A stretch of 40,643 bases of DNA from Candidatus Nomurabacteria bacterium RIFCSPLOWO2_01_FULL_41_18 (GCA_001785865.1 MFUZ01000006.1:1-40643), one strand, 5' to 3'; shown: positions 1 through 29,834, counted from the first letter of the stretch. Program-made: numbers and translations. Notes: generated from the letters alone by a model not told the origin.

Positions 1-540
1 GTCAGTTCGTGGTTTGAATTGTACCCTTAAGTGGGCTAACGAACGCAACCCTCGTTGTGTGTTACAAGTGTCACACGAGACCGCCCCCTCTCATGCACGT
101 AAATAAAGTTTTATATTTTTTAGTGATATTTTAATTCATGATATTTTCACTAAAGTAATAAATTTTGTTTGCATGAGAGGGGGAGGAAGGAGAGGATGAC
201 GCCAGGTCAGCATGTCCCTTTGATACCCTGGGCTACACACATAATACAATCGCCATTACAACGCGTTGCGACGAGGTAACTCTGAGCTAATCGTTTAAAA
301 ATGGCGTCAGTTCGGATTGAAGGCTGCAACTCGCCTTCATGAAGCTGGAATTGCTAGTAATCGCAGGTCAGCTAAACTGCGGTGAATACGTTCTCAAGTC
401 TTGTACTCACCGCCCGTCAAGTCAAGGGAGCCGGGAGTACCCGAAGTATCCGCATAAGCGGGTCCTAAGGTAAGCTCGGTGACAGGGACTAAGTCGTAAC
501 AAGGCACGGGTAGCGGAAGCTGCTCGTGGAATAATTCAAT
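1..540 (+). rRNA. rrs: 16S rRNA, 3' part (truncated by window start; 3' end approximate)
   Basis: Conserved 16S motifs AACGAACGCAACCC, GGAGGAAGG..GGATGACG, GGAATTGCTAGTAATCG, CTTGTACTCACCGCCCGTCA and AAGTCGTAACAAGG; helix 45 CACGGGTAGC-GGAA-GCTGCTCGTG at 505-528. Confidence 0.97.
84..183 (+). other. AT-rich hairpin insertion (intervening/expansion segment) in 16S helix 40
   Basis: CCCCCTCTCATGCA (84-97) pairs with TGCATGAGAGGGGG (170-183) and replaces the short helix normally found just before GGAGGAAGG. Confidence 0.85.
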
Positions 541-766
541 TTGAAAAACGTCCCTCACATGCTCGCATGTGAGGGGTAAAATGTCCCTCACTAATTTTTA
601 AATTGGTGAGGGACGTGAGTCGGTATTGCACGCCTCAATTGAGCGTGTAATGGACAATAATAGAATGTCCTAAAAACTATTTGACAGAGAGGAAAGACTC
701 TTAAGTTATAGAACGAAACAAAATAAAGGACAGTTCACTCCGCCTATTTCAGGCGGGGCAAGCTAC

Positions 767-804: not shown

Positions 805-833
805 TTGACAAAAATCGCAAATGGGTGTATAAT
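805..833 (+). promoter_or_regulatory. Consensus sigma70 promoter
   Basis: TTGACA (805-810), 17 nt, TATAAT (828-833). Confidence 0.85.
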
Positions 834-845
834 GAGGAGATAGGT

Positions 846-922
846 CAGTTCTTTTAAATTGTTGCCAAATTCGCTAGAGCAGAAAGCATCTTGTTGTCTA
901 AGATTTTTTCTGTTCTAGCGAA
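846..922 (+). promoter_or_regulatory. Leader element A: boxA-like motif plus 23-bp hairpin
   Basis: CAGTTCTTTTAAA, then TTCGCTAGAGCAGAAAGCATCTT/AAGATTTTTTCTGTTCTAGCGAA (870-922). Confidence 0.6.
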
Positions 923-957
923 AAAAATGTTGGTCAACTTAAGAAAAGGAATTCAAA

Positions 958-1149
958 ATGAAGACAATTATACCAAATTGGAGTGATGTCAGTTTCGAAG
1001 TCGTCGTGGCACGTGGTTCGTTGAGGCGCCCTTCCGTTCTTTACGATGCGGGAATCAATAGGTGCCCTAAAGATCCTCCCTTCTGGAAACCGAATCCCGA
1101 TCCTCAGTTCGTGATTACGCCATGGGGATTGAGGATTGTACGAAAGTAA
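958..1149 (+). CDS. Small hypothetical protein (63 aa)
   Basis: Has its own promoter, AAAGGA 7 nt before the ATG, and a GC hairpin terminator at 1163-1201. Confidence 0.6.
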   Translation: MKTIIPNWSDVSFEVVVARGSLRRPSVLYDAGINRCPKDPPFWKPNPDPQFVITPWGLRIVRK

Positions 1150-12008: not shown

Positions 12009-13293
12009 TGTAAAAAAAATTAAAAAAGTTTTTTTTATCGGTATTGGCGGTATCGGTATTTCTGCCTTGGCCAAAATGGCTCTTTCCCGTGGAATGGAAG
12101 TTTTGGGGGTGAATGACGAAGAAAGTTCAAAAACTATTGATCCTCTCCGTGAAGCGGGGGCTGTTATTTTTTACCTGACTGCGCAGGCAGGCCAGAACGA
12201 ATTAAAAGAATTGCCAGATGCTGATCTATACATTTTCAGTGATGCATGGATCTATCGTGGGCCGGAAATTATCATTGAAGCGCGGAAGCGAGGCGTTCCA
12301 GTGTTGAGTTATTTTGAGGCTTTGGGTGTGTTTGCAAAAGAATACAAAGTTATCGCAATTGCCGGTACTCATGGCAAGACCACTACGACTGCCATGATTG
12401 CAGAAATGTTGGTAAGTGCCGGGCTAGATCCTACTGTCGTTGTAGGTTCTTTTGTAAAAAAATTTGGGAGTAATTTTAGAAAAGGTAATAGCGACCCACG
12501 CCAAGGCGGGGCAAGCTATTTAGTCGTAGAGGCAGACGAGTATAATAGGCACTTCTTAAATTTCAATCCATTTATCGGAGTTGTGACGAATGTTGAAGCA
12601 GATCATCTAGACTGTTATAAAGATTTAAAGGATATACAAAATGCATTTGATAAATTTATTTCCCAGAGCGAACATAAAGTTTTAGATTACTCTAAATATT
12701 TAGAAAAAGTTCCGAAACTTTCTGTGCCCGGGTTGCACAATAGGATGAATGCCGCCGCCGCTCTTGCCGTCGCGGATATTTTGAATATTAACATGGAGAA
12801 TGCCGCAAAATCCCTTGCGGAATTTTCTGGGACTTGGCGCAGGCTGGAAAAAAAAGGAGAAACGAAGGAAGGCGCTATCGTTTATGATGATTATGCTCAT
12901 CATCCGACTGAAATTAAAGCGAGTTTGCAAGCTTTGCGCGATCTTTATCAGAAGGGAGGGGAGAAAAACAAAATCATCACTGTTCTTTTTCAGCCACACC
13001 TCTACAGCCGGACTCGGGCGTTTTTTGACGATTTTTCTAAAAGCTTCAATGAAGCTGATAGGGTGTTTCTTCTGCCTATCTATTTTGCACGAGAAGACAA
13101 AGATGAAAGCATCTCTAGCGAAAAATTGGCTCTAGCTATCGGCAAAGTTGGAGGCAATGTGGAAGCATATCCTGATTTCGAATCGGCTGAAGATGCTGTT
13201 AAGGCCTTGAAGTTGGGGCCTAAAGACGTATTTGTAACTATGGGGGCGGGTGAAGCTTACAAAGTCGCTGATAAAGTGCTCAAACTAGTCTAG
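11995..13293 (+). CDS. murC: UDP-N-acetylmuramate:L-alanine ligase MurC
   Basis: IGIGGIGISALA, AGTHGKTTTT, VEADE, DHLD, DDYAHHPTEI, FQPH, MGAG. Confidence 0.95.
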   Translation: MQNFDVKKIKKVFFIGIGGIGISALAKMALSRGMEVLGVNDEESSKTIDPLREAGAVIFYLTAQAGQNELKELPDADLYIFSDAWIYRGPEIIIEARKRGVPVLSYFEALGVFAKEYKVIAIAGTHGKTTTTAMIAEMLVSAGLDPTVVVGSFVKKFGSNFRKGNSDPRQGGASYLVVEADEYNRHFLNFNPFIGVVTNVEADHLDCYKDLKDIQNAFDKFISQSEHKVLDYSKYLEKVPKLSVPGLHNRMNAAAALAVADILNINMENAAKSLAEFSGTWRRLEKKGETKEGAIVYDDYAHHPTEIKASLQALRDLYQKGGEKNKIITVLFQPHLYSRTRAFFDDFSKSFNEADRVFLLPIYFAREDKDESISSEKLALAIGKVGGNVEAYPDFESAEDAVKALKLGPKDVFVTMGAGEAYKVADKVLKLV

Positions 13294-25444: not shown

Positions 25445-25454
25445 TAAAAACAAA

Positions 25455-25487
25455 AACAGCCGGGTTCCTTGCGGGACCCGGCTGTTT
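25455..25487. terminator. Bidirectional terminator between convergent units
   Basis: AAACAGCCGGGTTCC-ttgc-GGGACCCGGCTGTTT. Confidence 0.75.
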
Positions 25488-25539
25488 AGTTTTCTGATGT
25501 GTGCGTGGCGAACGCACGATTATCGCCATTTCCTTTCTT

Positions 25540-26061
25540 TTATTGCCACCAGCGGAAGTACACCTTTTCCTCCCCAAGTGGGTAGACGGTATACCTGCCC
25601 GGTGGCATGTTTTCCCATTCCTTCTGTTTTTCGTCCCTGCTTTTTTGATCAGGGCCGGAGTTGTTGTCGAAGTAGATACTTGTGTCTTCGACAAACACAT
25701 ACCTCGTTTGCTTTTTTGCCCGCAGGGAGGTTTTTTCAGGATCAAGGTACGCTTTGAGCCCGGCCTTTGTCGCGATGCCTGCGCCGGAAGTGGGATATTC
25801 CACCACGATCGGAGCCGGCGGATGAGCCCTGGCGTATTCTGCCACAGCTTGCGCTGCAGCCTCTTTCGCCTTGACTTTTTCACGCTTCTCCTTGACCCAA
25901 AGCACCACAAACAGTATTACGAGTGTGATACCAATCAATCGCAGAGCGCCTTTGATCCATCTGAGGGACTTTTGGCTCTCACTGACGATTGCTGGGTCCT
26001 TGGCACGGCTAACGTGTTCCTTGCCATGGCCCACATCCGTATGGCTTAGTTGTGTGCTCAT
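25540..26061 (-). CDS. Orphan single-TM membrane protein
   Basis: GGAGGT SD 5 nt before the ATG; ATGA overlap with the upstream SPFH gene; one TM helix. Confidence 0.75.
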   Translation of the reverse strand: MSTQLSHTDVGHGKEHVSRAKDPAIVSESQKSLRWIKGALRLIGITLVILFVVLWVKEKREKVKAKEAAAQAVAEYARAHPPAPIVVEYPTSGAGIATKAGLKAYLDPEKTSLRAKKQTRYVFVEDTSIYFDNNSGPDQKSRDEKQKEWENMPPGRYTVYPLGEEKVYFRWWQ

Positions 26062-26948
26062 GATTTACCTCCACGGAATGCTTTGACAATGCTGGCAATG
26101 GCTGGTCCAAGGCCTTCAATTTCAAAGATGGTTTTTTTGGTTTGCTGATGGATGATCATTGACGCATTGAGTGCATCCTTGTCATCAATGTTTGGATGAG
26201 CAGTTTTGATTTCCTTAGCTGTCTGCTGTATCCGCCTAGAAACTTCCTGGCTGGATCGTGCCTGTTGGACGCTGGTATCGAAGTCAACGTCGGCGAGGGC
26301 TACTCTGTCAACCCTTATTCCATAGAGTACAAGAGGAGTTGGTGAAGATTCCTTAAACTTCCTCAAGAGCGCTTCCTCGATTTCCCCTTGTTTAACTTTG
26401 CAATTATCTCCGGTCTCTTTTGCAATCTCTGCCGAGAGTACGCTGCTTCCTGTACCCCTCAAACCCGTCTTGATGGTGTTGTCATCGGCCGAGATGTAGC
26501 ACGGGAGACCCTCCAGAGTAGGGGTGTACTGGAATATCCATTCTACTTGCATCAATGAATCCTTCGACGGGTAAGTTTCCGTGATTGTTTCCGTTATCTG
26601 CCGAAGGTTGATGTAGTTGCCCTGTTTGACCTGTTCCCAAGGATACCGAAAGTAAAGTCCGGTGCCGTAGGGAACGAGTGCCTCCATTCCATTTTTTAGT
26701 ACGTTGATGGCGAGGAGTCCTGTGATTTCAGGCACTGAAACCATGAAGGGCTGGATGACTGCGGAGAGGGCAAAGAGCCCTATTGAGAGACCGAGGAGCC
26801 ATGAGTGCGTGATGAAGACCCCTAGTCCGGTAAAGAAGATCAGAGTTGCGGACCAACAAAGTAGCGCAAACCCTACTCTTCCCATTTTGTCATCTATCAC
26901 GGGCTCCATACACTGCCCGAGTTTCCTGCACATTTCTTTTGGATGCAT
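26058..26948 (-). CDS. SPFH/Band-7 (prohibitin-like) membrane protein
   Basis: Two N-terminal TMs, VSVPE..GTGLYFRYPWEQV, YGIRVDRVALADVDF..VQQA coiled segment. Confidence 0.7.
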   Translation of the reverse strand: MHPKEMCRKLGQCMEPVIDDKMGRVGFALLCWSATLIFFTGLGVFITHSWLLGLSIGLFALSAVIQPFMVSVPEITGLLAINVLKNGMEALVPYGTGLYFRYPWEQVKQGNYINLRQITETITETYPSKDSLMQVEWIFQYTPTLEGLPCYISADDNTIKTGLRGTGSSVLSAEIAKETGDNCKVKQGEIEEALLRKFKESSPTPLVLYGIRVDRVALADVDFDTSVQQARSSQEVSRRIQQTAKEIKTAHPNIDDKDALNASMIIHQQTKKTIFEIEGLGPAIASIVKAFRGGKS

Positions 26949-27009
26949 TTTTCCTTTCCATTGCGCTTTGGCGCAATTGTTCGATTGTTTTTGTGTTAAA
27001 TTAGTTTAG

Positions 27010-27148
27010 TTCGCCCATCAAAAAGCCAAAATATTCAGCTACTTGGTGGGCGAACCATGCCTATCTAACCCTGTTGTCAAAGGACAGCTTGCCCCGCCTA
27101 AGACGGGGTTTACATCTATACTATATCACAAAATACAGTAAAAGTCAA
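27010..27148 (-). promoter_or_regulatory. Leader element B: promoter, boxA-like motif and 21-bp hairpin
   Basis: TTGACT (27148-27143), 17 nt, TATAGT; CTGTCCTTTGACAA; hairpin 27010-27054; interrupted by a CCCCG..CGGGGCAAG palindrome (27088-27113). Confidence 0.7.
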
Positions 27149-27200
27149 TACAAAAAGTCCCTCACCTAAAATTAAGGTGAAGGACTTTTTGCTTTAGTTT

Positions 27201-27911
27201 TTAATCGTGTTTGAGAGGAACAGCGTGATATTTTCTATCTGCGCCGTAGATCCTGCGCACAAGGATGACAATAAGGAGAACTAGGATGGCTACGAATATC
27301 CACTGGATAATGCCGGAAGGCAAGACACCGTTTGCGCCAAAGATGGCTCCCGAAACGAGGTCGCTATATTCTCCTCTGACTTCACCTGTCTCTAGGTCGG
27401 TGAAATTTGTGCTGGTATCCGTCTCGGGATTCGCCGTTGCACCTGCGCCCGAAGGGGCAGGGCCAGCAATAGTGAAGAATTTAGCATTTGAATATCCTCC
27501 GCCCGGAGCACCATTAAATACTGTTATGAAGAATCCGCCATTACTATGGAACTTGAACGTGTCGCTACCGGTGATCTGCATCAAGAGGTGAGAGCGGTCT
27601 ACGAAAGTAGTCGGCCTGTTTGATCCATTTATTCTAGCTACAGAACTCGGGACAAACTTTTCTCCAATGATGGTGATAGTCTTCGTACCTGTGCCGACAC
27701 TGCTTCTCTCGGGAGTGATCGAGTCAATTTCTGGTTTTGGATTATCTTCTCTCACAGTAGCAGGCCTGGTGTAAGTATTGTAAATCGTATTACAACCACC
27801 CTCGCCGCAAGTCACAGCCGAGCTCGAAGCTGGCATTAACATGATTCCGAAAGCCAAAATTGCTAATATTTTAATGCTTAGAATTATTGATTTGTTGTTT
27901 ATTTTAAACAT
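27201..27911 (-). CDS. IPT/TIG (Ig-like) domain surface protein with C-terminal anchor
   Basis: Signal peptide, NPKPEIDSITP..ITIIGEKF..TTFVDRSHL..ITVFNGAPGGGYSN, C-terminal TM; TTGACA-17-TATACT-6-ATG. Confidence 0.75.
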   Translation of the reverse strand: MFKINNKSIILSIKILAILAFGIMLMPASSSAVTCGEGGCNTIYNTYTRPATVREDNPKPEIDSITPERSSVGTGTKTITIIGEKFVPSSVARINGSNRPTTFVDRSHLLMQITGSDTFKFHSNGGFFITVFNGAPGGGYSNAKFFTIAGPAPSGAGATANPETDTSTNFTDLETGEVRGEYSDLVSGAIFGANGVLPSGIIQWIFVAILVLLIVILVRRIYGADRKYHAVPLKHD

Positions 27912-28037
27912 ATATATAGTATAGCATATCTCATTATAAATGTCAAGTAAAAAGAAAAGGCGTCGGTGGAGGCCTTTTCCGGCTCACACAGACGCCTTTG
28001 ATTGTTATTACTTACTACTTCCACCGACGCTTTCCAG

Positions 28038-28487
28038 TTAGTTGCTGAAAACGGTGTTGACACCGCCTTCACCGGAACTGGTGACTACAGTGCCACGTGG
28101 GTGGTGGCCCATGTCGCCGCGGTTGTAGTTATGGGTGGGGTAGTAGGAGCCAGAAGGATATCCTCCGTACCCACCGCCGTAGCTGGTGGTTGGGACGTAC
28201 AAGGAAGGCCTTTTGGCTTCCTGGACGCTGGCTTTGGTTTGCCCTTTGAGCTCCGTCATGCGGAGCTCTTTCTGTGACGCTTCGGGGGTCTCGTCCAATT
28301 CGACCATCGTGATGTTGGTCGAGTTGGAGGTCACAACCGTGGTCCTTTTCACGGACCTTACCTGACCCACATCTTTCATTGGGTCAAGTGTTGTCGTCGC
28401 CGGGCCGACCCTTGGGGTTCCGCACCCGACCAACACTAACGCTGTCATGATTAAGCCCATGGCATAAGCTATTGTTGTTTTTTTCAT
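28038..28487 (-). CDS. Orphan putative lipoprotein
   Basis: MKK-hydrophobic-LVGC lipobox; AGGAG SD; Gly/Tyr-rich tail; terminator hairpin at about 27957-27999. Confidence 0.7.
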   Translation of the reverse strand: MKKTTIAYAMGLIMTALVLVGCGTPRVGPATTTLDPMKDVGQVRSVKRTTVVTSNSTNITMVELDETPEASQKELRMTELKGQTKASVQEAKRPSLYVPTTSYGGGYGGYPSGSYYPTHNYNRGDMGHHPRGTVVTSSGEGGVNTVFSN

Positions 28488-28517
28488 TTGTTCTCCTGGT
28501 TTCAGTGTTTATGTATG

Positions 28518-28645
28518 TTTTCCCGTAATAGCAACCCAGAAAGGCTAATTTCTAAGCTATTATTACGAGAAAACCCAGGAAAATATAGAAGGAACAGTCC
28601 ATTTATTACTCTACATAGTATATCATATTCTACCTAAAAAGTCAA
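28518..28645 (-). promoter_or_regulatory. Leader element C
   Basis: TTGACT-17-TATACT; CTGTTCCTTCTAT; hairpin CGTAATAATAGCTTAGAAA/TTTCTGGGTTGCTATTACG. Confidence 0.75.
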
Positions 28646-28706
28646 TAGCGCCGGGCAGCAAGCTGCACGGCGCTAAAGTGATTGATTTCGGCCCGGATTT
28701 CCAGGC

Positions 28707-29651
28707 TTATTTTGGAGGCGGGAACAGATCCCGCATCCAGTAGGGTTTTTCGCCGGGGGGATGAGGTGGAAGCTGGCGGTCGTGGACCACCAACGTGTTG
28801 TTGTTATGGATGACCAGCCCTTGGGCTGGTGAGGTATAAGCCCTTGCAGCGGATTGCGCCGGAAGGACGTTGTTCACCACCAACAGGTTGTTGTTTGTCA
28901 CCCCGGAGGGTGAAGTCCCAGCGATCGCAGTCGGTGTCGCCGTTGCCTTTGTAACCGCAGCGGGACAAGGTACGACCGGGGCCGGCGGAACATTCGTCAA
29001 GGTGAGTAGCCGTCGGAACGGTTCCATCGCCTGTAGCAATTTTTCGGTGACGATCACGTTCACAAGGTCCGGGATTTCCGCCCGGATGGCGGCGTTGTCT
29101 GCGGCCATTTCGGAGCCTAGGTCTCGCATCCGCGCCGACAGCAACACTTGGTTACTGCTGACCAGTCCGACAATTGCATTGAGTTCACCAGTAGTTCTCG
29201 CCAGGTTGTCGCTCATGCTCGTCGTGGCTTCAGACACCAATTTCCGTAGCTCACATGACGTTTTCGCCAGGTTGTTGCTCATGACGTTTTCGCTCCGCTC
29301 CATTCTGGCATTCGAGGCCACAAGCAATTTTGTGATTGCTTGCAACTCATTGCTGAATGTTGCAACATCGCTTCGGCGGGGAGGTGTCACCACCACTGCC
29401 GTTTTGTTGTCTTGCTCGCAAACCGTCACCGCTTCTTCCTCGTCAGTTAGAACAGGAGCGACGGTCGTCGTGTCATCAAATGACGTGCAGATTGACGCTA
29501 GGGTACGGTGACCCCAGTCTGTCATCAACATAATACATCCAAGGAGGATGACGGCTCCCAAGCCAACGATGCTCCCAAATATCAGCTTGCCCTTCAGGGT
29601 AAGGCGTTTCCGTAACTTACGTTCAGTGGCTTCTGGTTGTGTTTCGTTCAT
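28707..29651 (-). CDS. Orphan single-TM protein with coiled-coil and Pro/Thr-rich tail
   Basis: Basic N-terminus plus TM; internal repeat MS(N/D)NLA(K/R)T..EL; terminator hairpin at 28646-28675. Confidence 0.7.
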   Translation of the reverse strand: MNETQPEATERKLRKRLTLKGKLIFGSIVGLGAVILLGCIMLMTDWGHRTLASICTSFDDTTTVAPVLTDEEEAVTVCEQDNKTAVVVTPPRRSDVATFSNELQAITKLLVASNARMERSENVMSNNLAKTSCELRKLVSEATTSMSDNLARTTGELNAIVGLVSSNQVLLSARMRDLGSEMAADNAAIRAEIPDLVNVIVTEKLLQAMEPFRRLLTLTNVPPAPVVPCPAAVTKATATPTAIAGTSPSGVTNNNLLVVNNVLPAQSAARAYTSPAQGLVIHNNNTLVVHDRQLPPHPPGEKPYWMRDLFPPPK

Positions 29652-29701
29652 AGGTTTTCTTTCGTTAACTGACGTTGTTGTTTAGTTTTTCCTGCAGTTC
29701 C

Positions 29702-29834
29702 TCCTGCAAGATAGCAACCCAGAAAACTAATTTTCTAGGCTATTATCTTGCAAGAAAACAAAAACAAGAAAAAACATATAGAAAGAACAATCTTTTGCTA
29801 GATGTTGTATAACATATTTAGAAGAAAAAGTCAA
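29702..29834 (-). promoter_or_regulatory. Leader element D
   Basis: TTGACT-17-TATACA; TTGTTCTTTCTAT; hairpin GCAAGATAATAGCCTAGAAAA/TTTTCTGGGTTGCTATCTTGC. Confidence 0.75.

Follow-up and report, generated by a model that had tools for sequence, protein, structure and literature searches.

In this article I discuss a 40,643-nucleotide stretch of DNA from Candidatus Nomurabacteria bacterium RIFCSPLOWO2_01_FULL_41_18 (GCA_001785865.1 MFUZ01000006.1:1-40643), called the window below, in which three transcription units on the minus strand at 25,455 to 29,834 and a fourth on the plus strand at 805 to 1201 each begin with a copy of one structured 5'-untranslated leader RNA. The source organism is a Paceibacteria-type member of the Candidate Phyla Radiation (CPR) whose genome comprises 749,714 bases in nine contigs with 40-44% GC, and the window covers contig C6 from its start to 40.6 kb. 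The leaders are named by letter: A belongs to the SPFH operon, B to a lipoprotein gene, C to the gene for a coiled-coil protein and D to the 805-1201 unit, and E and F lie elsewhere in the genome. Their common anatomy consists of a sigma-70 promoter, a boxA-like tract of the form GUUCUUU(A/G/U)A.., a hairpin of 20-27 bp and, 6-10 nt before the start codon, an AAGGAG-like tract that resembles a Shine-Dalgarno (SD) site. Two covariance models supply the scores listed here, R1, built from leaders D, E and F, and R2, built from a 20-row alignment (A6) of twenty sense-strand R1 matches that were aligned to the model, a fitting that favours structure. The features of the window that matter for what follows are these:

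1-541, plus strand: 3' part of the 16S rRNA gene, with a tail lacking CCUCC (covariance-model alignment).
806-834, plus strand: promoter of unit D, TTGACA, 17 nt, TG-n-TATAAT, nearly the same as the promoters of leaders E and F.
834-957, plus strand: leader D (R1 90.1 bits, R2 73 bits; fold z-score -5.66), with the boxA-like tract GTTCTTTTAAA at 848-858, the hairpin at 870-922 (23 pairs) and the purine tract AAAGGAA at 945-951.
958-1149, plus strand: orphan 63-aa open reading frame (ORF) after leader D, with no Pfam or PHROG family.
25454-25487, minus strand: terminator hairpin ending the operon of the SPFH and transmembrane genes, 15 pairs, with a minus-strand T-run and usable in both directions.
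25540-26061, minus strand: 173-aa transmembrane protein (GC 0.525, 99th percentile).
26058-26948, minus strand: SPFH/Band 7 protein of 296 aa (Pfam PF01145).
26949-27119, minus strand: leader A (R2 29.0 bits, E 1.3e-4, filters off; fold z-score -4.77), with a small hairpin and CAAGCT at 27108-27086, the boxA-like tract CTGTCCTTTGACA at 27087-27075, the main hairpin at 27057-27007, a second hairpin at 26976-26961 and the purine tract AAAGGA at 26957-26952.
27120-27148, minus strand: promoter of unit A, TTGACT-17-TATAGT (scan: 10/12 matches, with TG before the -10).
27150-27192, minus strand: terminator of the TIG gene, an 18-pair stem with a T-rich tail after it.
27201-27946, minus strand: IPT/TIG-domain protein gene with its own promoter (PF01833, E 5.8e-7).
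About 27951-27996, minus strand: likely terminator after gene B, a hairpin and T-run read by eye and absent from the terminator scan.
28038-28487, minus strand: 149-aa lipoprotein-like orphan with a signal peptide and Cys lipobox (GC 0.551, 100th percentile).
28488-28616, minus strand: leader B (R2 34.0 bits, E 1.1e-5, filters off), with the boxA-like tract CTGTTCCTTCTAT at 28597-28585, the hairpin at 28577-28514 (27 pairs) and AGGAG at 28497-28493.
28617-28645, minus strand: promoter of unit B, TTGACT-17-TATACT (scan: 10/12 matches, with TG).
28707-29651, minus strand: 314-aa transmembrane/coiled-coil orphan (GC 0.55, 100th percentile).
29652-29805, minus strand: leader C (R2 25.5 bits, E 7.6e-4, filters off; fold z-score -5.84), with the boxA-like tract TTGTTCTTTCTAT at 29790-29778, the hairpin at 29758-29699 (27 pairs) and the purine tract GAAAGAA at 29663-29657.
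29806-29834, minus strand: promoter of unit C, TTGACT-17-TATACA, read from the sequence, its last base failing the scan rule.

An earlier sequence-only reading of the window had proposed imperfect hairpins of 20-23 bp in these leaders, and the stems are there, with 22 pairs in A, 27 in B, 27 in C and 23 in D, among the longest of the 128 hairpins of at least 17 pairs found by scanning the 750-kb genome. Fold z-scores of the leaders run from -4.8 to -5.8, equally good folds appearing in 0/200 shuffles, and stems of 22-27 pairs are of RNase III size (about two helical turns, at least 20 bp) in a genome that encodes the enzyme. Leaders B and C are similar to each other in sequence. The genome-wide hairpin scan, combined with inspection, yielded two further leaders, E at C3:10171-10347 and F at C8:4318-4480, which have their promoter, boxA-like tract and hairpin in common with D at 72% column identity. 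Run on the own genome, R1 matched D, E and F and, at E 0.08, leader A; R2 added a seventh copy at C6:121967-122066, bringing the total to at least seven, and with its filters off gave B, A and C as its top three matches, on the sense (minus) strand only.

Among relatives, R1 was positive in 22 of 100 other genomes of the genus and R2 in 47 of 150 other genomes of the order, where 44/131 genera were matched (counts including this genome) with at most eight matches per genome, and another 19 R2-positive genomes come from other orders of the class. One genome, G076 (locus L013), supplies one of the 22 genus positives and one of the 20 rows of A6, hence also part of R2, and enters the SD-tract, fold, pairing and cargo-cluster counts below as one leader gene; no claim depends on it alone. 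Across the 20 aligned leaders, both partners vary in 21 of the 24 hairpin pairs and pairing extends to 92.4% of cells, values reached in 0/500 shuffles, and sliding the partner by 1-3 columns leaves 41-57% paired; the gap is wide, even for an alignment fitted to its model. Two G-U pairs are kept, in 17/20 and 15/20 leaders, and the model score of leader D falls from 90 bits in sense to 30 bits in antisense; G-U pairs conserved on the sense strand together with such low antisense scores indicate an RNA on that strand rather than a DNA element. Units A-D thus carry copies of one structured leader RNA whose hairpin is kept by sense-strand compensatory changes, and building a covariance model of the leader and scanning own and related genomes with it has confirmed a family wider than first seen. 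Rfam 15 gave no match at the leaders at gathering thresholds, and scans by E-value returned only chance-level hits, for example to miRNA hairpins, far below threshold; likewise, I found no publication on boxA or NusB in Parcubacteria, Patescibacteria or CPR that describes such a leader. The family is specific to Parcubacteria/Paceibacteria-type bacteria and is not in the Rfam catalogue. A leader of another type occurs at C9:71981-72024 and C6:158663-158600, where a GAGCUC..GAGCUC hairpin is directly followed by GTTCTTTTACAACAGG and by a start 30-40 nt further on; CAGGAG stands before the start in one of the two, and leader A resembles this GAGCUC-hairpin type.

Just after the transcription start the family consensus reads ..GUUCUUU(A/G/U)A(A/U)A.., often continuing with ACUUGCGA, and the core GUUCUUU is present in 41/75 leaders. 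Leaders E and F read GTTCTTTAAAA, an exact match to GYTCTTTAANA, the gamma-proteobacterial boxA consensus as it appears in the part of Baniulyte et al. (2017, PMC5725501) that was covered, and the tracts of D, A, B and C depart from this consensus by 1-3 mismatches. In five genomes of the genus, CUUUGAYAA comes after a hairpin in the 16S leaders; the 23S leader has ACUUUGAAAAC, and the tract of leader A (UCCUUUGACAAC, with a small hairpin before it) is the closest to this rRNA-leader version. The boxA-like motif claimed at the outset is therefore well founded in the exact consensus match of E and F and in the related tract of the 16S leaders of the genus. The genes nusB and rnc are both encoded and lie adjacent to each other on contig C2 (RNase III gene at C2:74065-74460), and boxA and RNase III roles for the leaders are plausible to judge from these sequences. 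Separately, a short GC hairpin with (G)GCAAG(C/U) after it is repeated at window positions 740-764, 12504-12517 and 27108-27086 and at C8:30527 and C4:15880-15915. Its copies lie downstream of 16S, within leader A, in the leaders of 16S and 23S and elsewhere, and it may be a boxB-like or processing element.

The tail of the own 16S rRNA reads GGAAUAAUUCAAUU where the bacterial consensus has GGAUCACCUCCUUU, by covariance-model alignment, and CCUCC stands at its canonical place in 0/55 tails (own, 25 genus loci and 29 order loci), so the proposal of a 16S without CCUCC holds for every tail examined; CU-rich stretches further downstream in two relatives' loci lie in spacer hairpins and were not counted as anti-SD. 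The own-genome search with RF00177 gave no match despite the partial 16S in the window, and the 5' half was placed via a primer motif. Loss of the anti-SD in a subgroup of Parcubacteria is already published and is not new here: the covered sections of Tsurumaki et al. (2022, RNA 28:1041, PMC9297842), the only paper that I found in the literature on anti-Shine-Dalgarno in Parcubacteria, report the motif CCTCCT in 48% of Parcubacteria. After helix 45 (window 516-541; loci L049-L106 and L273-L283) a small hairpin with covarying stems (UUCAA/UUGAA, UUCCA/UGGA, UUCCG/CGGAA) replaces the single-stranded anti-SD, and the class as a whole has a graded series of tails, from the canonical ACCUCCUUU to UUCUCCUUUUAAGGAA and UUCUCUUUUAAGAGA and on to AAUUCAAUUUGAA, which suggests that the anti-SD was lost stepwise through self-pairing of the tail. 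Genome-wide statistics were drawn from a crude gene caller of my own (775 genes, 91% coding), and by these crude calls the sequence ahead of the start codons lacks an SD peak and is poor in G at -12..-4, and its TGnTAnAAT signal at -15..-7 suggests that many mRNAs are leaderless, in agreement with the leaderless core genes of the sequence-only reading. Two candidates for a hidden anti-SD were rejected: an alternative matching the new 16S tail (GAAUU-type) has no positional enrichment upstream of starts, and the sole exact GATCACCTCCTT elsewhere in the genome, at C9:36404, is antisense inside a gene. The 16S gene also carries an 89-nt insertion relative to the bacterial model at window 70-160, larger insertions splitting the 16S in several relatives, and CCCTCACATGC..GCATGTGAGGG hairpins (window 553-612; C3:91299-91333) flank the 16S 3' end and the 23S 5' end and may be rRNA processing stems.

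The SD-like sites claimed for most of the starts in the window are present as AGGAG (28497-28493), AAAGGA (26957-26952), AAGGA (946-950) and GGAGG in the end of the SPFH frame, unit C having only GAAAGAA. With start codons picked by a simple rule, GGAG, GAGG or AGGA occurs within -20..-1 of 24/40 leader genes, compared with 102 of 772 genes of the own genome (13%) and 3 of 39 control ORFs in the relatives' leader loci. More loci and refined starts raise this to 49/75 leader genes, with G at 31-51% across -12..-8, which is SD spacing, and class-level leaders have an AAGGAG-type tract 6-9 nt before the start in 12/12 cases read by eye. SD-positive and leader-positive genes therefore coincide well above the genomic background, and the enrichment, being positional, is not a by-product of GC content. 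Since the own 16S has no complementary CCUCC, the purine tract cannot count as a working SD in this cell; the leader-positive relatives G281 and G363 carry the canonical ACCUCCUUU tail, and G275 the intermediate UUCUCCUUUUAAGGAA, so the tract may be an inherited SD. Between the hairpin and the purine tract a CCUC/CUCC element is found in 25/60 leaders against 11.2 expected. As a pairing partner of the purine tract this element was rejected, the two being minimum free energy (MFE) partners in only 4/19 leaders, and CsrA as a reader of GGA tracts was set aside because no CsrA gene was found in the genome.

Behind these leaders stands a varied set of genes. BLASTP clustering of 78 leader genes puts 46, including those of E and F, in one family of about 170-250 aa and 7 in a second, the remainder being singletons that include the A-D cargo of the window. 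The roughly 200-aa family gave one weak Pfam hit in 46 members and no PHROG match, its AlphaFold model (pLDDT 78.6) had no PDB fold match at E <= 0.001, a search of 5.8 billion proteins found only relatives called "hypothetical protein" from Patescibacteria/Minisyncoccia, and its neighbours in the Atlas are Minisyncoccota clusters, with a TM 0.50 likeness to DUF5701. The SPFH protein matches PF01145 (E 3.4e-7, 30.9 bits against a cut-off of 23.6), as do its homologs; the gene occurs in 1/40 relatives searched, and the protein has 26 other homologous clusters at 35-64% identity, whose sole named taxon is a Parcubacteria lineage, so that every homolog bearing a name is from CPR. The public call for this gene gives 291 aa from the second ATG, five codons later (window 26933-26948), and if that start is true the distance from the AAAGGA tract to the start is about 20 nt instead of 5. 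The lipoprotein-like orphan of unit B has no Pfam family and only a weak PHROG "lipoprotein" match (E 0.006).

By gene GC, the cargo ranks in the 84th-100th percentile of the own genome, in keeping with the GC-rich proteins first noticed, and cargo in relatives is richer in GC than its surroundings in 27/29 loci (0.508 against 0.395). The accompanying idea that the cargo is membrane-bound or exported fits the types in the window and fails for E and F, whose products look cytoplasmic. In a congener, G018, the same slot, from the left-flank genes to tRNA-Leu(taa)-tRNA-Lys, holds minus-strand cassettes with orthologs of leaders A and C, the latter near-identical and adjoining the same tRNA-Leu, and the proteins behind these orthologous leaders are unrelated to those of the window (E 58) or marginally similar (E 0.008 and 0.002); the leaders are thus far better conserved than the genes that they drive, and the cassettes are resident rather than fresh imports. 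This also revises the simpler alternative offered in the sequence-only reading, of recently acquired cassettes with a shared regulatory leader: self-contained units with one leader they are, and "recently acquired" is too simple for A and C. As to a source, tblastn of protein F against 50,697 phage records gave no match, and the leader pattern was found in no viral contig, a search of low sensitivity in that the pattern recovers 13 of about 90 known leader loci. For integron-type cassettes, the sole tyrosine recombinase (PF00589) is on contig C9, far from the cassettes, and the hairpins lie 5' of the ORFs. Repeats of other kinds were seen elsewhere in the genome: a 52-nt hairpin in two identical copies, 1 kb apart at C4:8051-8102 and C4:9113-9164, whose flanks also agree over about 60 nt on each side and which make a repeat element; near-perfect palindromes from GTTACGTAATGTATTACGTAATACATTACGTAAC at C6:299153-299206 and C5:6819-6864; and at C6:48590-49024 a motif occurring four times at exact 141-nt spacing, which points to a tandem repeat, possibly intragenic.

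The outer parts of the units agree for the most part with what had been reported. Sigma-70 promoters with 17-bp spacing are present for all units, those of A and B by the consensus scan and that of C as read from the sequence, and three of them do begin with TTGACTTTT; the region has 8 promoter-like sites against 6.3 +/- 2.3 in shuffles, a count that alone is not above chance. A terminator for every unit is a claim that stands in part, clear after the transmembrane gene (25487-25454) and the TIG gene (27192-27150) and, for B and the weaker case of C, by eye only. The leader hairpins themselves were compared with intrinsic terminators and attenuators, and no U-run follows directly, the sequence after the main hairpins being A-rich or mixed. 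Within the SPFH operon the start of the transmembrane gene overlaps the SPFH stop (ATGA), and GGAGG stands 7 nt before that start, still within the SPFH frame. The TIG gene has a promoter TTGACA-17-TATACT at 27946-27918 (minus strand) whose -10 ends 6 nt before the ATG at 27911, making it leaderless; it sits in the middle of the leader-bearing cassettes, has no leader of the family and is less GC-rich (GC 0.46).

The reading that I favour, with slightly better than even confidence on this sequence evidence, is that the leader is a lineage-wide cis-regulatory element of the nut/rrn type, boxA plus an RNase III-sized hairpin, placed on a GC-rich and fast-changing pool of accessory cassettes. The 5'-proximal boxA-like tract would be a putative NusB/S10 site like those of rRNA leaders, lambda nut sites and the suhB leader of E. 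coli, the hairpin of 20-27 bp would act as a processing or stability element of RNase III size, and the two would jointly govern the output, stability and translation of the downstream message. The AAGGAG-like tract would descend from an SD of ancestors or exchange partners that still have an anti-SD, and in cells without one it may persist because it pairs with the boxA tract, a pairing that would fold the leader shut as a rod, so that Nus binding would preclude access to the start and vice versa. Predicted structures are consistent with such a rod: in 21/36 leaders the MFE fold closes the leader by joining the boxA window to the pre-start window through at least 5 paired nt, the mean pairing probability of -20..-1 is about 0.45, and individual compensatory cases can be seen (CUCCUUG with CAAGGAG; GCUCUUUA with UAAGGAGC).

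A number of results weigh against this nut/rrn-type reading. In the global pairing test, cognate boxA/purine duplexes have no energy advantage over non-cognate ones (p 0.89 and 0.73), and 21% of ordinary pre-start windows pair equally with boxA. The base 3' of the boxA YUU does pair with the base 5' of AAGG in 20/43 leaders against 13.1 expected, with a permutation p of 0.0017 that ignores kinship among what are perhaps four independent lineages. The perfect partner of GUUCUUU, furthermore, is AAAGAAC and not AAGGAG, so pairing alone fails to explain a likeness to SD at SD spacing; and ordinary long ORFs in G281 and G363 rarely have an SD-like motif (2/36 and 2/16, small samples), so an inherited SD requires an older ancestor or a special status of the leader genes. 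Some of the leader-gene starts picked by the simple rule are surely wrong, and the rRNA-leader CUUUGAYAA, which shares the core of the leader motif but not its 5' GYUC, is only partly the same. Rho, finally, was not found in the genome with the PF07497 or TIGR00767 models; the classical purpose of boxA, protection from Rho, is therefore missing, and the purpose of boxA and RNase III likely shifts from antitermination to control of translation, processing or stability.

Those same pairings could be all that there is to the leader, an account that I think unlikely, in which the CU-rich tract is the 5' strand of a closing helix and the purine tract its 3' strand, with no Nus site, and the leader serves as a translational on/off switch that hides the start, thermometer-like or opened by a protein or small RNA, its likeness to boxA and SD being a by-product. 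The closing helix of the MFE folds, the pairing probability before the start, the single compensatory cases and the covariation of the flanks would all follow from such a switch, whereas the cognate versus non-cognate permutation shows no advantage, both tracts are conserved in sequence well above what pairing needs, and the exact boxA consensus match and the related rRNA-leader tract of the genus would have to be a coincidence. Rather more doubtful is that the leader is a relic on an exchanged gene pool, the cassettes circulating among Paceibacteria, lineages with an anti-SD included, so that promoter, SD and GC content mirror that pool and the SD-like tract is functionless here. The GC-rich cargo, in relatives and at the 91st-100th percentile here, the different cargo behind orthologous leaders of congeners, the SPFH gene in 1/40 relatives and the presence of the family in the anti-SD-bearing G281 and G363 speak for this, but neutral baggage should decay, and the tract is kept across an order with 0/55 anti-SD tails whose other genes are without the motif; moreover, leaders A and C are syntenic in G018 and hence resident, protein F has no phage match, the low-sensitivity pattern (13 of about 90 loci recovered) finds no leader in viral contigs, and the one tyrosine recombinase is far from any cassette. 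For the purine tract taken alone, the likeliest account is an inherited SD that a structural or regulatory role has preserved, followed by a relic and then by something new.

That something new would be cassettes meant for ribosomes other than the bulk, either those of a host after transfer or ones guided by a novel factor or specialised to read AAGGAG, which strikes me as decidedly improbable; if it were true, an SD-type signal would be read without its canonical rRNA partner in a whole bacterial class. Expression in the host, the speculation of the sequence-only reading that these transcripts escape the cell's own ribosomes, deserves very little credence: it would make the cassettes universal units (consensus promoter, boxA, SD) read by SD-using host ribosomes after RNA or DNA transfer from the episymbiont, and it draws on a canonical SD at canonical spacing where the 16S cannot pair, a foreign-like composition and a consensus sigma-70 promoter and terminator of each unit's own. 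I found no direct support for it, and neither transfer machinery nor a signal or precedent came to light, though no test aimed at these was made; many cargo proteins look like everyday cytoplasmic, lipoprotein or membrane products of the producing cell, the boxA/RNase III logic requires the producer's own factors, and the family also occurs in relatives with a canonical anti-SD, whose own ribosomes could read it, so that an inherited SD or a structural role is simpler than delivery to a host. An equally long shot is an element at the level of DNA, the hairpins being integron attC-like recombination sites or operators that mark cassette borders; conserved imperfect palindromes beside variable cargo, with cassettes in a row, do invite that comparison, yet G-U pairs are conserved on the sense strand only, leader D scores 30 bits antisense against 90 sense, the hairpin always lies between promoter and start codon, and the single tyrosine recombinase is on another contig.

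If the nut/rrn-type reading holds, we would have before us a widespread and uncatalogued structured RNA leader of CPR bacteria, present in up to eight copies per genome and in about a third of the sampled genomes of the order, that brings a fast-evolving pool of orphan genes under boxA control of the rRNA type. The puzzling residue is a conserved and correctly spaced SD-like tract in cells in which the 16S anti-SD has been replaced by a small hairpin, and this makes the tract a natural test case for translation initiation and for how ribosomes choose start sites in SD-less bacteria, the candidate readers being RNA pairing, Nus factors, another factor, or nothing. It would also bear on how ultrasmall symbionts regulate the variable genes that most likely mediate contact with their hosts, and with the covariance model and coordinates the family can be searched for directly.

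Comparison with known systems helps to place the leader. Tsurumaki et al. (2022) deal with the same lineage-level trait, the loss of the anti-SD, and the passages covered describe neither a gene set that retains SD-like sites nor a leader. The boxA of rRNA-operon leaders and lambdoid nut sites is alike in its GYUCUUUAA-type tract near the 5' end of the transcript and next to a hairpin, in a cell that encodes NusB and has a related tract after a hairpin in the 16S leaders of its genus; unlike these, the leaders described here precede orphan-protein genes on mRNAs, have a rod of 20-27 bp instead of a short boxB stem-loop and contain a site that is putative, and, in contrast to nut sites, they come with no known N-like protein and from a genome in which Rho was not found with two models. 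The suhB boxA of E. coli, in the covered sections of Baniulyte et al. (2017), likewise lies upstream of a protein-coding gene, in a 5'-untranslated region, and can repress translation across up to 100 nt of RNA, thus acting on initiation at a distance, a case that those authors liken to the structured lambda N leader; its outcome there is Rho-dependent termination and autoregulation of a Nus factor, whereas the present genome yielded no Rho with two models and the leaders head an unrelated orphan family. Leaders that sequester the SD, such as thermometers and riboswitches, share a purine tract before the start that is predicted to pair with an upstream pyrimidine tract, and the CCUC/CUCC enrichment between hairpin and tract is a further likeness, but the rRNA here has no anti-SD to compete for the tract, Rfam gave no match and the permutation tests were negative. 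In the lambda N leader, nutL is followed by an RNase III-sensitive structured region and then by the N ribosome-binding site. The order is the same as here, promoter, boxA-containing site, long structured RNA, purine tract and start codon, and the differences are that no phage context was seen for the present leaders and that they occur in many copies per genome with variable cargo. By this analogy of layout, the lambda N leader is the closest known architecture to the leaders of the window.

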